DNA of 64,000 nucleotides from Candidatus Bathyarchaeia archaeon. GTDB lineage: Archaea; Thermoproteota; Bathyarchaeia; Bathyarchaeales; Bathycorpusculaceae. Each line of letters begins with the position of its first letter. Positions within the stretch are counted from its first letter, which is position 1. The position numbers and the translations under genes are program-made. Below are positions 29,933 through 35,648 of the stretch, piece after piece. Location of the stretch: the NCBI GenBank assembly GCA_038883855.1, contig JAVZLH010000005.1, positions 1 to 64,000 on the forward strand, in the 5' to 3' direction. A model generated the notes under the pieces. That model saw only the letters and a program-made list of their open reading frames with translations, was not told the DNA's origin and ran no database searches.

Positions 29933-32389
29933 TTAGTATTCGCTGATGAAACTTATTTCTGGAAAGTTTTTAACTTGCCTGCCATTTCCCTTCTCAGAAA
30001 GAATCTCCAACATTGCAATTTTGCACGTTCCAATTATGTCCTCTTTGTTCTCGCTTATTATATTTGCATACTTGCTCTTGCCAGCATAAATCCTCAACTT
30101 CTTAATTACGGCGTTTAATGGTTTCCGTTTCTCCGCCTTCTCACGCCTAACCTCATTTATCACAGCCACAACCAAGTCCCCATCCCGCTCAGCCTCCTCG
30201 TCAATCCTTTCCGCTTCCGGCTTTGGCCAAGATGTTAGTTGTAAACTTTTTTGTCTAACAACATCAGCGTAAAGGTTTTGATAAATTTCCTCAGTTATGT
30301 GCGGCGTTATTGGAGCCAGCAACTGCAGTATTCTGTAGAGAACAGTGTAAAGGGTGAACTGGGCTGCTTTCCGTTTTTCTTTTCCGTAAACTTCTGGCTT
30401 GTAGAGTCTATCCTTAACAGCTTCAATATATTGATCGCAGAAAATGTGCCAAGCAAAATTGCGTACCTCTTCCAAAGCAATGTTAAATTGACATTTTTCT
30501 AAGGCTTCTGTAACTTTCTGCGTCATCTTCTCCATCTTACTTAAAATCCACTTATCCAAAAGCTGCAATTCGCCTTTTTCGTCCACCTTATAATCTTTCA
30601 GTTGAGTGCCAACAAATTTAGCAGCGTTCCAAAGTTTAGTCAAAAACCTTCGCCCATACTCAACATCTGGCCAGCGAAACGGAATATCTGAACCTGTTGC
30701 CCCACCAGATGCAGCCCATTGTCTAGCAGCGTCTGTTCCGTACTTGTCCAGCACTTCTGGGGCTGCAACATAGTTTTTTAGCGATTTGCTCATTTTTCTA
30801 CCGTCTGAACCTAAAACCATGCCATTAATGAGGCAGCTTTTGAATGGTTTCTCATCAAATAATGCGAGGTGCCTAACCACCAGATAGTAAGCCCATGTTC
30901 TAATTATGTCAACTCCAGAAGGATGCAAATCCGCTGGAAAAAGCCTCCTCCAGTCTTTTCTGTCAGGCCATCCAGCGTGCACAGCACATGATATGGATGA
31001 GTCCATCCACGTGTCAAAAACATCCTTTTCTGGAACGAATTCTTTGCCGCCGCACTTCGGACATTCGCTTATTTTGGGCTTTTCCAGTTTCGGATCCACT
31101 GGAACCCATTCCTCTTTAGCCACTATAATTTCGCCGCAGTTTTTACAATACCATACTGGTATGGGTGTTCCGAAAACGCGTTGGCGGCTTATCACCCAGT
31201 CCCAGTCCAGGGAGCGCGCCCAGTCTATTAGGCGAGTTTTCATGTGCTCAGGATACCAGACAATTTCGTTGGCTGCCTTCTCAACCTTGTCTGTTAGGAT
31301 TCGGGTTTTCATAAACCATTGGGGAAGCTCCAGAATTTCAATGGGAGTTTCGCATCTGTCGCAGACGCCTATCTCTTGGCTAATTTTTTCAGTTTTCTCC
31401 AAAAGCCCCGCAGCCTTCAAATCTTCCACTATAGCCTTCTTTGCCTCTTCTATAGTTAAGCCAGCGTATTTTCCGCCATCACAAGTTATTTTGCCCTCTT
31501 CGGTTAAAAGCGCTATCACTGGAAGCTTATGCCTAATCACAGTTTTCACGTCTTCCTTGTCTCCGTAAGTGCATATCATGACCACACCTGTACCAAAGGA
31601 AGGGTCGACACCCTCGTCTGGGATTATTTCAACCGTTCTGTTGACGAGTGGGACTTTTATTTTTCTGCCAATGTGCTTGTTGAATCTGTCGTCTGCGGGG
31701 TTTACTGCTACGGCAACACATGCTGGTATGAATTCTGGACGTGTTGTAGCTATGAGTAAATGTTCGCTGCTTCCTTCCAAAGGAAACTTGATGTAGTGAA
31801 GCGTGCCCTCCCTCTCCTCGTAATCCACTTCAGCGTCTGCAATCGCCGTTTCACAGCGGGGACACCAGTTGACTGGATGCTTGCCTCGGTACATGAAACC
31901 CTTATTATATAGAATTATGAAACTCAGTTGCGTGCGTCTCCAATAATCAGGGTCCATAGTGCGATATTCGGTTGTCCAGTCAACGCTGCAGCCTAGGCGC
32001 ATTACGCCTTCCTTCATCATGGCAATGTATTTTTCAACAAGCTTCTCGCACAACTTTCGAAACTTGTCAGGCGGCACATCCCTTTTCTTAATTTTGTTTT
32101 CCCTTTCCACCTGCACTTCAATGCCTAACCCGTGGCAGTCCCAGCCCTGTGGAAAATAAACGTTAAAGCCCCTCATGCGCTTGTAGCGGGCGACAATGTC
32201 AAAGTATGTCCAGTTGAGGACATTTCCCATGTGAAACTCGCCTGAAGGATAAGGCGGAGGCGTATCAATGCTGAAAGTTGGACGCTTATTATCTTCCCAG
32301 TCAAAACGGTAAACACCCATCTCTTCCCAAAGCTTCTGCCACTTACGCTCAATGGCTATAACATCAAACTCTTTAGGCAAAGGCTTCAT
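29933..32389 (-). CDS. valS: Valine--tRNA ligase
   Basis: 'DTPPPYPSGEFHMGN', 'VNWCPRCETAIADAEV', 'WVISRQR', 'KMSKS'. Confidence 0.97.
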   Translation of the reverse strand: MKPLPKEFDVIAIERKWQKLWEEMGVYRFDWEDNKRPTFSIDTPPPYPSGEFHMGNVLNWTYFDIVARYKRMRGFNVYFPQGWDCHGLGIEVQVERENKIKKRDVPPDKFRKLCEKLVEKYIAMMKEGVMRLGCSVDWTTEYRTMDPDYWRRTQLSFIILYNKGFMYRGKHPVNWCPRCETAIADAEVDYEEREGTLHYIKFPLEGSSEHLLIATTRPEFIPACVAVAVNPADDRFNKHIGRKIKVPLVNRTVEIIPDEGVDPSFGTGVVMICTYGDKEDVKTVIRHKLPVIALLTEEGKITCDGGKYAGLTIEEAKKAIVEDLKAAGLLEKTEKISQEIGVCDRCETPIEILELPQWFMKTRILTDKVEKAANEIVWYPEHMKTRLIDWARSLDWDWVISRQRVFGTPIPVWYCKNCGEIIVAKEEWVPVDPKLEKPKISECPKCGGKEFVPEKDVFDTWMDSSISCAVHAGWPDRKDWRRLFPADLHPSGVDIIRTWAYYLVVRHLALFDEKPFKSCLINGMVLGSDGRKMSKSLKNYVAAPEVLDKYGTDAARQWAASGGATGSDIPFRWPDVEYGRRFLTKLWNAAKFVGTQLKDYKVDEKGELQLLDKWILSKMEKMTQKVTEALEKCQFNIALEEVRNFAWHIFCDQYIEAVKDRLYKPEVYGKEKRKAAQFTLYTVLYRILQLLAPITPHITEEIYQNLYADVVRQKSLQLTSWPKPEAERIDEEAERDGDLVVAVINEVRREKAEKRKPLNAVIKKLRIYAGKSKYANIISENKEDIIGTCKIAMLEILSEKGNGRQVKNFPEISFISEY

Positions 32390-32462
32390 AATGCAACATC
32401 CTAAACATGCTCTGATTTTAGGAAAAATAAATATACAACTAAATAACAATTGCTCTCAACAG

Positions 32463-32560
32463 GGTTTAGGGGAGCTGGGCGGTGACCCGGCTGAGAGGAC
32501 GGCTGAATCGCCGTCGACCCTTAGAACCTGATCCAGGTAATGCTGGCGGAGGGAAAAACC
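32463..32560 (+). ncRNA. TPP (thi-box) riboswitch
   Basis: P1 GGTTT/AAACC; AGGGG-AGCTGGG..CCCGGCTGAGA; P3a GACGGC/GCCGTC; ACCC..GAACCTGATCCAGGTAATGCTGGCGGAGGGA follows the TPP consensus; directly upstream of thiT. Confidence 0.93.
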
Positions 32561-33094
32561 ATGAACGAAAAAAAGGAATCTAAAATTAGTTCTCCAACTA
32601 AAATAATAGCCGAAGTCGTCTCCTTTGTTGCCCTTGCAACAGCGTTAAGCTACGTTAAGGTTTTCAGTCTTCCAGAGGGAGGCTCGGTGACAGCTGGCTC
32701 TATGGTTCCTATTCTTTGGCTTGCTTTAAGAAGAGGACCAAAAATCGGATTATTTGCAGCAGCAGTTTATGGTCTGGTGCAGCTTGCCATTGAACCCTTC
32801 ATATTTCATCCGGTTCAGGTGCTTCTTGACTATCCAATAGCTTTTGGTGCGCTTGGATTAGCTGGGTTTTTCCAAAATCGTCCCTTCGTAGGTGTTAATG
32901 TTGGCATTTGGAGCAGGTTCCTAGCACACTTTGTCTCCGGCGTAGTTTTCTTTGCTGACTACGCTCCTGAGGGAATGCATCCGACGATTTATTCAGCAAT
33001 ATACAATGGAAGTTACATATTGCCAGAGCTTGCAATAAGCATTTACATAATTTACCTATTGCAAGAAAGTAAATTGCTCAAAATGTTTCTCTAA
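32561..33094 (+). CDS. thiT: ECF-type thiamine transporter S component
   Basis: 'LPEGGSVT..SMVP...RRG', 'HPVQVLLDY', 'HFVSGVVFF..YAPEG..YS..YNGSY'. The real start is the ATG at 32561; the upstream ATG lies inside the aptamer. Confidence 0.92.
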   Translation: MNEKKESKISSPTKIIAEVVSFVALATALSYVKVFSLPEGGSVTAGSMVPILWLALRRGPKIGLFAAAVYGLVQLAIEPFIFHPVQVLLDYPIAFGALGLAGFFQNRPFVGVNVGIWSRFLAHFVSGVVFFADYAPEGMHPTIYSAIYNGSYILPELAISIYIIYLLQESKLLKMFL

Positions 33095-33107
33095 GAGCGG
33101 ACAAGGC

Positions 33108-33821
33108 ATGACTAAGTTAAAGACGGGAATTAGTGGCTTTGACGATTTAATAGGTGGCGGTATCGAGTCTGGCTCACGAAATATCCTTTATGGACCGCCT
33201 GGAACTGGGAAAACGGTCTTTGCTATGCAGTTTCTTTGGCAAGGATTGCAAGAAGGAGAAATTGTTGCTTATGATGTTATGGATAAACCGTTTCCCCGTT
33301 TAATCGCCTACTTTAAGTCTTTCGGTTGGGACATTGAACCCTACATTGAAAGGGGCAAGTTCATAGCCATACAAGCCTTCCCACACTTTGAACCGTACCC
33401 AAAGGACCCGCGAGTCATCTATTTCAGCCTAGAAGATTTTGAGGAGATGAAACGTATTGATAGATTGATTTCGGAAAGGGGAGTTACACGGTTTGCTGCC
33501 GGAGACTTTAGTGAGCAATTATTCGCTTTATATGATTTAAAGTATATGGAGCCTGTTGAGGATTGGACTATTAACTGGTGCCACTATGACAACATTGTTA
33601 ATATTGACATAATGACGACAGCAACACAAAAGGATTTAGCGACGCAGCGGGCTACAGACCTCGACCTAAACAAGGCTCACAACATTTTCCTTTTTAGATT
33701 CAACGAGGAAAAATGTAGAAGAGAATTAAGGATAGTTAAGATGGAGGGGTGCGAGCACCCGCTTGAGTGGATTCCATTCAAGATAACAAATAAGGGCATT
33801 GAACTGATAAGGAAAGAATAG
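33108..33821 (+). CDS. Single-domain KaiC/RAD55-like ATPase (divergent)
   Basis: 'KTGISGFDDLIGGG', Walker A 'GPPGTGKT', C-terminal 'RELRIVKMEG..H...PFKITNKGI'. Confidence 0.8.
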   Translation: MTKLKTGISGFDDLIGGGIESGSRNILYGPPGTGKTVFAMQFLWQGLQEGEIVAYDVMDKPFPRLIAYFKSFGWDIEPYIERGKFIAIQAFPHFEPYPKDPRVIYFSLEDFEEMKRIDRLISERGVTRFAAGDFSEQLFALYDLKYMEPVEDWTINWCHYDNIVNIDIMTTATQKDLATQRATDLDLNKAHNIFLFRFNEEKCRRELRIVKMEGCEHPLEWIPFKITNKGIELIRKE

Positions 33822-33841
33822 CTGTAGGTTATGCATGTAAA

Positions 33842-34852
33842 ATGGGAAAACTCGCAACAGAAGACCTTAAAAAACTTCTGAAATGCATAAGGGAAAATTC
33901 ACGAGTTATTGTGCCACCTATGCCGGGCTTTGACTCTGGAGTACACTTTGTCAACAGCGAATATCTTGTTGTTTCAACTGACCCATGCATTGGTGTACCG
34001 CAAAAATGGTTTGGATGGCTCCTAATCCATTACGCAGCCTCTGACGTGGCATTGTTCGGTGCAAAACCGCAATTTTGCACAGTAAACCTCTTGGGTCCAC
34101 CTTCAACGAAACCAGAAATTTTCTACGAGGTTATGGAGCAAGTTTGCGGGGCGGCGGATGAGCTTAACATGGCTGTTGTAACCGGGCACACCGGAACTTA
34201 TGAGGGTTTGTTGACGCTTGTTGGAGTCTGCACAGCGTATGGCGTTGTAGATAAGGAAAGGCTGAGGACTCCGGCTGGCGCCAAACCAGGAGACTATATC
34301 TTATGCACTAAAGCCGTTGGTTTGGAAATTGCCGTAAACTTTGCGCTGACCCATACTTCACTTGCTGAGAAACTTTTGGGAACAGATGAAACAAAGAGGC
34401 TTTCAGAACTTGTTTACATGCAGAGTTGCGTTAAAGAAGCTTTGTTGCTTTCAGAGATTGAAGGAGTTCACGCCATGCATGATGCCACTGAAGGCGGATT
34501 AATCGCAGCTTTAAACGAGATGGCTGAGACTTCGGGAACGGGATTCAAGATAGAGTTTGAGAAAATTCCAGTAAATGAGGAAGCGCAAACCCTAAGCCGA
34601 TGTTTCAATTTGACAGATGAGCAGACATTGGCTATGTCTTCAACAGGCACAATTATAGCTGCTGTCAGTCCAAATGCGAAGGATAAAGTTGAAGAAGAAT
34701 TGCGCAAAAATGGCGTGGAAGCGAGTTTTCTGGGAGTTTTCACGAAGGACAAACAGCGCATTCTTGTAAAAAATGGAAAAGAACTAAGTTTTCCACGTAA
34801 AGCGGAAGACCCCTACGAAAAAATATTGGCAGGAAAATCTTTGACGGTTTAA
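33842..34852 (+). CDS. AIR synthase-related (HypE/ThiL-like) protein
   Basis: 'MGKL', 'VSTDP', 'ASDVA..GAKP', 'GHT', 'MHDATEGG'. Confidence 0.85.
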   Translation: MGKLATEDLKKLLKCIRENSRVIVPPMPGFDSGVHFVNSEYLVVSTDPCIGVPQKWFGWLLIHYAASDVALFGAKPQFCTVNLLGPPSTKPEIFYEVMEQVCGAADELNMAVVTGHTGTYEGLLTLVGVCTAYGVVDKERLRTPAGAKPGDYILCTKAVGLEIAVNFALTHTSLAEKLLGTDETKRLSELVYMQSCVKEALLLSEIEGVHAMHDATEGGLIAALNEMAETSGTGFKIEFEKIPVNEEAQTLSRCFNLTDEQTLAMSSTGTIIAAVSPNAKDKVEEELRKNGVEASFLGVFTKDKQRILVKNGKELSFPRKAEDPYEKILAGKSLTV

Positions 34853-34862
34853 AACGGATTAT

Positions 34863-35648
34863 TTAAGAACTTTCTAAGCTAACCCTTTCTGGAGCAGTGT
34901 AAACGTTCATGCATTTTCCGCGCACAAACCCTATTAAGGTTATGTTTGCTTTTTTGGCTATTTCTATCCCAGAGTCTAGGGCTGCAGCCAAAGAGGCAAC
35001 TATCGGCAGTCCCACTTTTGCTGCCTTGAAAACCATATCGCCTGTTAAGCGTCCACTTATAGCGAGAAAGCATTCTGAAAAATTAACCTTTGAAAATGCG
35101 CCTATACCTATGGCTTTGTCTACGGCGTTGTGGCGACCAACATCTTCAGCAAACGCCAAAAGAGCCCCGTCGCTTTTATATAGGGCTGCAACATGCACCC
35201 CGCCCGTTTTTCTAAAAGTTTCCGCTATAAAGTTTAGGTTGTTCACGCATTTTTGAACCGTTTCAGCTTTGACTTTTATGTCCGCCCTAATTTTTGGAAG
35301 TTTTGTGGATGGCTGGTGTGGACCGCCGCAAGCTGAAAGTATTATGCGAGACATCTTCTGTAAAAGTTTTAATCTGTTTTCTATGTTGACTTCTGGTTTC
35401 AGCTTGATTTGGTATACACCTTCTTCTTTGAAGTTTATTTCCGCGATTTCTTCAGTTGAGTTTATGACGCCTTCTGTTAGCAGATGCCCCACAGCAAGTT
35501 CTTTCAGGTTTGTTGGCAAGCAGAAGACGGTTGCATATCGGGTTCTGTTTAGGAATATGTGAAGCGGTTTTTCCTCCGCAATGTAATCCCTTACTTTTTC
35601 TGCCTTTTTGGCATCTGTGTCAATTCTAACTATTTCAACCTCACGTAT
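34863..35648 (-). CDS. fdhD: Formate dehydrogenase accessory sulfurtransferase FdhD (start likely ATA at 35648)
   Basis: 'EEKPLHIFLN...P..LKELAVG.L.TEG', 'TGGVH.A', 'EDVGRHNAVDK', 'SGR'; the conserved N-terminus lies upstream of the listed TTG. Confidence 0.9.
   Translation of the reverse strand: MREVEIVRIDTDAKKAEKVRDYIAEEKPLHIFLNRTRYATVFCLPTNLKELAVGHLLTEGVINSTEEIAEINFKEEGVYQIKLKPEVNIENRLKLLQKMSRIILSACGGPHQPSTKLPKIRADIKVKAETVQKCVNNLNFIAETFRKTGGVHVAALYKSDGALLAFAEDVGRHNAVDKAIGIGAFSKVNFSECFLAISGRLTGDMVFKAAKVGLPIVASLAAALDSGIEIAKKANITLIGFVRGKCMNVYTAPERVSLESS

Follow-up and report, generated by a model that had tools for sequence, protein, structure and literature searches.

How can an RNA sensor control a gene whose start codon follows it without a single intervening base? 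The question is raised by thiT, encoding the thiamine-specific S component of an energy-coupling factor (ECF) transporter, in the 64,000-nucleotide stretch of Candidatus Bathyarchaeia archaeon DNA analysed here (contig JAVZLH010000005.1, positions 1 to 64,000; "the window"). thiT is preceded by a thiamine pyrophosphate (TPP) riboswitch aptamer that appears to include the gene's own Shine-Dalgarno (SD) sequence. An initial inspection of the letters, referred to below as the sequence-only reading, had interpreted this arrangement as a direct translational OFF switch. The present analysis favors the same interpretation, namely direct translation attenuation of thiT by a TPP riboswitch acting as an OFF switch, with a probability of about three in four.

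The thiT leader

When the whole window was scanned with cmscan against Rfam 15, the TPP family RF00059 matched the + strand at 32458-32572 over model positions 1-105 of 105, with a score of 73.8 bits (E 1.2e-12) against a gathering score of 54.3 bits. This is the sole Rfam match above a gathering score within the window and, at equal score, the sole TPP match in the genome, a metagenome-assembled genome (1,109,576 bases in 24 contigs, 85% complete). The ligand-contact motifs are all present: CUGAGA, ACCUGAU (32526-32) and GCGGAGGGA (32546-54). The TPP-contacting bases are assigned after the crystal-structure literature, and the helix names follow the usage of the thiM literature. The sequence-only reading had described a full TPP consensus and named a covariance-model search as its check; with the score above the gathering threshold and every motif in place, the element is a genuine TPP aptamer.

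The geometry of its 3' end was also read correctly. The AAACC strand of P1 ends on the base immediately before ATG 32561, and GGAGG is separated from this codon by an 8-nucleotide (nt) spacer. The SD had been assigned to "P4/J4-1", which needs correction, as GGAGG is made up of the last base of the CG bulge (G32548) and the GAGG of the P4 3' strand. The ATG lies 0 nt beyond P1 and 6 nt beyond the ...GGGA of the aptamer, placing the locus among the arrangements classed as direct translation attenuation by Barrick and Breaker (2007; PMC2258182). With the start codon abutting P1, an expression platform could not fit in between, and the + strand showed no terminator-like site over the interval scanned (32300-33200); the claim that the locus lacks a separate platform or terminator thus holds.

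The open reading frame (ORF) from this ATG is thiT, as had been proposed: its product matches PF09515 (E 2e-47) and the NCBIfam equivalog TIGR02357 (141 bits; cut-off 108.45). At the position homologous to 32561, relatives have ATG, GTG or TTG, and ThiT homology starts there. The in-frame ATG at 32540, with which the ORF as listed begins, was considered as the start of thiT and rejected, since it sits in loop L5 (UAAUGC), which reads UAAUAC in many relatives. Among species-representative genomes, the ThiT relatives are labelled Bathyarchaeia or Bathyarchaeota (45-88% identity), followed by Lachnospiraceae (44-48%), in agreement with the earlier assignment of the host to the TACK archaea.

Conservation was assessed in an alignment (A1) of 55 related sequences carrying an Rfam-derived structure, with 500 shuffles as the control. 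Standard pairs occupy 90.3% of pair cells versus 85.6% in the shuffles, none of which (0/500) scored as high; 13 pairs vary on both sides, and sliding the register lowers the score greatly in every case. Helices P2 to P5 are 91-100% paired, 8 of their 21 pairs vary on both sides, and RNAalifold recovers all of them independently. In the pyrimidine-sensor arm, 91-99.6% of helix cells are paired and both-side changes are present. Compensatory changes are carried by P3, P3a and P5, the last being 100% paired with 12 both-side changes. The three P4 pairs CCU/AGG, containing the AGG of the SD, are invariant in 55/55 sequences, and invariant columns number 43 in all, including every ligand-contact motif. 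In the window, P1 consists of 5 base pairs (bp), GGUUU/AAACC, two of which are G-C; the closest relatives retain it at 5-7 bp by compensatory change (GGUUU/AAACC, GGUCU/AGACC, AGGGU/ACCCU).

Use of SD sequences by the organism was surveyed at the starts of 963 non-overlapping ORFs of at least 120 codons, taking the first start codon of each (a crude rule). GGAGG occurs between -18 and -3 at 6.1% of these starts, as opposed to 0.5-0.9% in two upstream control windows, and four-base SD cores at 39%, as opposed to 10-12%. The positions at which GGAGG begins peak at -15 to -12 (48 occurrences); that of thiT begins at -13. SD-led initiation is therefore normal in this organism, and the thiT SD lies at the usual distance. 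No 16S gene was found in the assembly itself; the 16S rRNA of a same-genus genome (G002) and of a same-family genome (G010) ends ...GGAUCACCUCCU, with a tail ...CACCUCCU complementary to GGAGG (CCUCCU end). The purine-rich 3' region of the aptamer is a candidate ribosome-binding site, consistent in its placing and letters with both the genomic SD signal and the relatives' 16S tail. Family membership of the element, its anatomy, its conservation and SD usage by the organism are established here.

A candidate TATA box and a purine-rich run resembling a transcription factor B recognition element (BRE) lie upstream of the aptamer (Table 1). In many related loci the aptamer is preceded, at equal spacing, by the block ...AGGAAAAATAAATATACAACTAAATAACAATT..., and over 136 loci A+T content is highest at -44 to -26 from P2. 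In archaea the TATA box precedes the transcript start by about 26 nt. The thiT transcript probably starts near 32458, a few bases ahead of P1, in which case the aptamer would make up the entire leader.

Table 1. Features of the thiT locus (window coordinates)
Feature	Position	Strand	Basis or remark
Purine-rich BRE-like run ahead of TATA box	32420-27	+	read from sequence
Candidate archaeal TATA box TAAATATA	32428..32435	+	read from sequence
TPP riboswitch aptamer, probable whole 5' leader	32458..32560	+	RF00059; P2-P5 compensatory changes in 55 relatives
P1 5' strand GGUUU	32463..32467	+	cmscan alignment
Pyrimidine-sensor arm	32468..32521	+	cmscan alignment
P2	32468-71 with 32518-21	+	cmscan alignment
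P3	32474-78 with 32487-91	+	cmscan alignment
CUGAGA	32491-96	+	cmscan alignment, sequence
P3a	32498-502 with 32511-15	+	cmscan alignment
Pyrophosphate-sensor arm	32527..32552	+	cmscan alignment
P4, CCU(G) with (G)AGG	32527-30 with 32549-52	+	cmscan alignment
P5	32533-36 with 32543-46	+	cmscan alignment
CG bulge between P5 and P4	32547-48	+	cmscan alignment
Predicted SD GGAGG, in CG bulge and P4 3' strand	32548..32552	+	distance to ATG, 16S tail complementarity
J4-1 GAA	32553-55	+	cmscan alignment
P1 3' strand AAACC, last 5 nt of SD-to-start spacer	32556..32560	+	sequence, cmscan alignment
thiT, ECF S component for thiamine, 177 aa	32561..33094	+	PF09515, TIGR02357
KaiC/RadA-like P-loop gene	33108..33821	+	PF06745 at 5.5e-33; 13 nt after thiT
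AIR-synthase-family gene, best ThiL-like candidate of genome	33842..34852	+	TIGR01379 90.8 bits; 20 nt past KaiC-like gene

Possible modes of control

In the proposed mechanism, GGAGG would belong to the sensor itself, its first G forming part of the CG bulge and the remaining GAGG the 3' strand of P4. At low TPP, P4 and P1 would be open or breathing, the CCUCC tail of the 30S subunit could pair with GGAGG, and ThiT would be made. Bound TPP would bridge the two sensor arms, allowing P4, P5 and P1 to close; the closed aptamer would bury the SD together with the spacer, right up to the AUG, so that initiation would be blocked. From the sequence we infer that the element binds TPP and thereby affects translation. 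The direct translational OFF switch is the best reading of the locus in view of the genome-wide use of SD sequences, the CCUCC in the relatives' 16S rRNA and the conserved position of the abutting start codon.

Folding was modelled with nearest-neighbour energies at 37 C. With the aptamer pairs enforced, the leader folds at -39.8 kcal/mol, compared with -44.8 kcal/mol for the minimum free energy (MFE) structure; in this model, about 5 kcal/mol from the ligand would be needed to favor the aptamer fold. In the free ensemble, G32549 and A32550 of the SD are unpaired more than 90% of the time, G32548 58%, and G32551-52 15% and 5%; spacer positions 32553-58 are 88-100% unpaired, and C32559-60 4%. 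Two candidate switching partners were rejected. One is the long hairpin into which the MFE structure fuses P3 and P3a; it is absent from the RNAalifold consensus of the 55 sequences and is therefore not claimed as a conserved anti-aptamer, of which the design has no need. The other is a downstream anti-SD, UCUCC at 32592-96, which pairs with GGAGG in longer folds. Such a motif exists in only 5 of 71 direct-type thiT leaders (those with the start codon within 15 nt of ...GGGA), and its predicted partner shifts with the length folded.

Several observations weigh against this interpretation, and most of them concern P1. In the fixed register, P1 is paired in just 58% of cells across the 55 sequences, cmscan flags many non-pairs in P1 of distant relatives, RNAalifold does not recover the helix from the 55 sequences, and cognate P1 strands pair over a mean of 3.8 bp versus 3.5 bp for non-cognate ones. 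The weak conservation of P1 leaves its share in switching within the clade uncertain. As to the SD, the G that completes GGAGG (G32548) faces G32530, a G-G mismatch atop P4 that is flagged by cmscan. This completing G is found in 73 of 87 direct-type aptamers and in 32 of 53 of the platform type, a comparison confounded by relatedness; being common in either architecture, it provides no clean evidence of selection for an SD. In addition, the energies above were calculated for 37 C, for an organism whose DNA occurs in runs labelled hot-spring metagenome (none of the runs listed for 31900-34900 was of RNA); in a 65 C model, the bare aptamer stands at -12.4 kcal/mol versus -20.8 for the MFE structure. 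Lastly, the putative transcript start is placed by a TATA-like box only, and gene starts in the comparative data were called by a crude first-start rule that is biased to near starts.

Other ways in which the aptamer could act were weighed against the same evidence. The TPP-bound form might operate mainly at the RNA level, through premature termination or through faster decay of untranslated mRNA. Archaeal RNA polymerase stops at oligo-T without a hairpin, and untranslated mRNA is commonly less stable, making a secondary effect on RNA level likely. Against a primary one stand the zero distance from aptamer to start codon, the lack of terminator-like sites on the + strand over the interval scanned, and the first 60 nt of thiT, which are A-rich on the + strand and devoid of any T run. 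Transcription attenuation is therefore unlikely, and the RNA-level explanation as a whole appears improbable. About equally unlikely is repression independent of the SD, in which folding of P1 beside the AUG would hide the start, GGAGG being mere CG.AGGGA aptamer core. AGGGA is indeed invariant in all TPP aptamers irrespective of mechanism, the 32 platform-type aptamers with the completing G have a second SD of their own, and many archaeal mRNAs need no SD, according to PMC8241225. What speaks for the SD is its clear signal in this genome, at exactly the distance seen in thiT, together with the complementary 16S tail of relatives; moreover, many relatives with a weak P1 or none retain the abutting start codon, which makes P1 alone a poor candidate for the occluding element. 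It is very improbable that the aptamer is a decaying relic without control over thiT. The weak P1 of distant relatives, and nothing further, would suggest as much, against the 43 invariant columns, the compensatory changes in P3, P3a and P5, and the retention of the aptamer ahead of thiamine genes in 93 of the 151 class genomes.

Within direct translation attenuation, a more specific possibility may be put forward tentatively, with the odds against it: in Bathyarchaeia the bare aptamer would do all of the switching, and the element responsible would have moved from P1 to the pyrophosphate-sensor arm, giving a nearly P1-less thermophilic riboswitch. P1, at the 58% pairing noted above, would have eroded in many lineages to an A-rich spacer between SD and start, and TPP would gate ribosome access to an SD built from the pyrophosphate-sensing nucleotides, that is, from the CG bulge and the P4 strand.

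Occurrence, architecture and origin

RF00059 matches are present in 28 of the 41 nearest genomes, including 21 of 24 from the same family. Among genomes sampled across the class, 93 of 151 have TPP matches, up to four per genome; the corresponding figure for genomes sampled across the phylum is 30 of 151, and 20 of these positives, from four families, are among the 131 genomes outside the class. The sequence-only reading had held riboswitches to be rare in archaea, with TPP examples mainly in Thermoplasmatales, and had suggested looking at their distribution across Bathyarchaeia. This survey does so, and the generalization fails for this lineage.

For the comparison of architectures, aptamers in the pooled loci were located by regular expression. 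Seventeen non-matching loci were excluded, as were nine hits scoring under the gathering threshold and two class hits whose downstream sequence was too short. This left 141 unique aptamers, of which 140 are followed by an ORF (Table 2). Downstream genes were labelled by Pfam, except for ThiT (BLAST) and ThiD (named by eye). For thiT, the distance from ...GGGA to the start codon has its mode at 6 nt. In the 87 direct types, the identity of the abutting start codon varies (48 ATG, 23 GTG, 16 TTG) and its position is kept.

Table 2. Genes downstream of TPP aptamers and proximity of their start codons
Downstream gene	Aptamers	Start codon within 15 nt of ...GGGA
ThiT	91	71
ThiW	14	7
Weak ECF-S-like membrane protein	14	4
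ThiC	6	0
NCS1 permease	4	0
ThiD	1	0
Binding protein	1	0
Others	9	5
All	140	87

Aptamers at a long distance from the gene carry a second SD, for instance UUUUGGAGG ahead of thiC and the permease. In other classes of the phylum (L176-L183), an anti-SD/SD pair, CUCCUUCU...AGGAGGUG, lies between the aptamer and a solute-binding-protein gene. Since direct and second-SD forms are both found, these archaea share both translational designs that bacteria are known to use. Some TPP aptamers in L176-L183 precede thiW, with a TTG 8 nt past the aptamer. The idea that a short upstream ORF (uORF) serves as a general relay, a start codon still abutting the aptamer 70-80 nt ahead of thiC or the permease, was dropped: a start codon occurs at +2 to +11 in 18 of 44 platform-type aptamers, close to chance (roughly 38%), and uORFs ending near the main start number only 6 among these 44.

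Individual loci depart from the common arrangement. At L010 (1600-1690) and L017 (minus strand), in genomes G021 and G023, an NCS1 permease gene with its own UUUUGGAGG stands in the place of thiT, 76-78 nt downstream of the aptamer. Both loci keep the conserved promoter and aptamer. A frame of 25-26 codons runs from the former start of thiT, which reads ATG at one of the loci and ACG at the second, to a TAA overlapping the ATG of the permease, and in L010 it retains an SSPT-like stretch of the ThiT N-terminus. This looks like replacement of a gene behind a retained riboswitch. At L018 and L029 (genomes G006 and G007), the aptamer lies 74-76 nt ahead of thiC and is followed by a 9-codon frame ending ...AFK(L/P)F-stop; a C/U-rich stretch in these loci, seen in two sequences only, could be an anti-SD for the second GGAGG. 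L043, a 3.4-kb contig labelled Anaerolineae, has the window's gene order, with thiT (78% identity) and then the KaiC-like and AIRS-like genes behind an aptamer of the Bathyarchaeia type; it is probably archaeal DNA binned in error and not a bacterial copy. In a same-order genome, a DUF3800-VI RNA match (RF02915; 39.9 bits, gathering score 35) is found downstream of thiT (L022, 2094-2151).

The gene family itself is unevenly distributed. Of the 151 genomes sampled across the phylum, 12 have PF09515, and almost all of these 12 are Bathyarchaeia; among 14 control genomes, it occurs in Bacillus, Lactococcus and Thermotoga. A quick IQ-TREE phylogeny was built from 57 archaeal riboswitch-linked ThiTs (80 before an 80% identity filter) and 35 bacterial ones, the latter from one phylum plus one Coriobacteriia sequence. 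In this unrooted tree, archaeal and bacterial proteins are parted by one split on a short branch (SH-aLRT 78), which fits either one old acquisition or long residence of ThiT in the class; lacking a root, the tree gives no direction of transfer and no donor can be named. The suggestion that the aptamer was acquired with thiT from bacteria thus finds no positive support in this single, weakly supported split, and the evidence on co-transfer of the two points neither way. With five further thiamine gene families also preceded by it, the aptamer is not simply a passenger of thiT. Two ThiTs from the same genus (L004 and L005) differ in their relation to the window's protein, one being 82% identical and the other 58% identical and in a different major branch of the tree, a hint that thiT has been exchanged or replaced within Bathyarchaeia. 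In two further loci (L012 and L025, genomes G039 and G032), the ThiT homologues have about 75 inserted residues between the positions that correspond to residues 108 and 110 of the window's protein, apparent as two tblastn segments some 225 nt apart within one open frame.

Thiamine supply and relation to known riboswitches

Upstream of thiT lies a divergent gene for valine-tRNA ligase (ValRS), which is the divergent neighbor in 22 of 33 related loci. Downstream, the KaiC-like gene is probably in the same operon as thiT and is followed by a gene of the AIR synthase family. The latter is the genome's best match to the thiL model TIGR01379, at a score below the cut-off of 184 and about level with SelD and HypE, and HypE is its best solved relative by sequence. 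In the related loci (L030-L062), the AIRS-like gene follows thiT in 28 of 33 cases, with a KaiC-like gene between the two in 16 of 33. The pairing of thiT with the AIRS-like gene suggests a salvage kinase, and the cluster could be a thiamine-salvage kinase operon under riboswitch control. An ecfA-ecfA'-ecfT operon on contig C1 indicates that ThiT can be energised. Searches of the 85%-complete genome found no ThiC, ThiD, ThiW or NCS1 permease (tblastn with Bathyarchaeia queries) and no thiamine pyrophosphokinase domain; the Thi4 model matched only Rossmann-region fragments within large proteins, and matches to the ThiE model fell below cut-off. At this completeness, the pattern suggests thiamine auxotrophy. 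As no genes for de novo thiamine synthesis were found, the riboswitch-linked ThiT is probably the main route to vitamin B1.

Among known switches, that of E. coli thiM is a translational OFF switch in which an expression-platform helix hides a separate SD; it has the aptamer fold in common with the window's element, whereas the window's SD is part of the aptamer itself. The CUCCUUCU anti-SD upstream of AGGAGGUG in other archaea of the phylum represents the thiM-like form. The archaeal TPP riboswitches of Rodionov et al. 2002, presumably reference 48 of the 2007 paper, reportedly lay in Thermoplasmatales. It is to Rodionov 2002 that archaeal TPP riboswitches are credited in McCown et al. 2017 (PMC5473149), which counts, over riboswitches of all classes, 6 in Crenarchaeota, 1 in Thaumarchaeota and 1 in Korarchaeota. 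These earlier archaeal cases belong to the same aptamer class and likewise lie ahead of thiamine transport genes, in a phylum different from the window's. As for the buried SD, PMC2258182 states that some riboswitches bury the ribosome-binding site in the aptamer core, most commonly those for TPP, preQ1 and SAM-I, and that in TPP riboswitches the purine-rich 3' region stands in for it. The thiT leader resembles the bacterial cases of direct translation attenuation described there in having the purine-rich 3' part of the aptamer as predicted ribosome-binding site, a start codon within 15 nt and no platform. It differs from them in that the host is an archaeon with an archaeal ribosome and that this is the majority form at thiT in Bathyarchaeia. 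The mechanistic novelty implied by the sequence-only reading was thus overstated: with the buried-site TPP design and archaeal TPP riboswitches both already described, the window's element belongs to a known type.

The same gene family and aptamer class are combined in Firmicute thiT riboswitches, an example being RSthiT of Lactococcus lactis (PMC8862789). For a bacterial contrast, 101 genomes of the phylum to which a Butyrivibrio genome belongs were searched, yielding 30 loci which, with 5 other bacterial ones, made 35 with a callable ORF. A recognisable aptamer lies upstream of thiT in 21 of the 35. The homology-aligned start is 35-285 nt past the aptamer and in none of the 21 within 15 nt, compared with 71 of 91 in Bathyarchaeia; when the most-upstream in-frame start is taken, two bacterial starts fall at 3 and 5 nt and two ORFs overlap the aptamer. 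The fluoride riboswitch of Thermococcus kodakarensis is likewise natural, archaeal and thought to be translational, with a ligand and fold different from those of the thiT element. In a limited search of the literature, nothing was found on the prevalence of TPP riboswitches in Bathyarchaeia or on the dominance of platform-less forms at thiT, and both appear to be absent from the papers searched.

The finding of TPP aptamers in more than half of the Bathyarchaeia genomes sampled revises the view that riboswitches are rare in TACK archaea, for which McCown 2017 gives a total of 8 in three groups. According to PMC8241225, the fluoride riboswitch was in 2021 the sole natural archaeal riboswitch determined experimentally, and no archaeal TPP riboswitch had been so determined; this adds to the value of the thiT locus. 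At about 105 nt the candidate is compact, the nucleotides that would sense the ligand being also those that would bind the ribosome, and it is as such a clean system in which to ask whether RNA structure alone can gate the archaeal 30S subunit. Should the tentative proposal of a nearly P1-less switch be true, it would represent the first widespread riboswitch regulon in TACK archaea, comprising thiT, thiW, thiC, the NCS1 permease, thiD and the binding protein.

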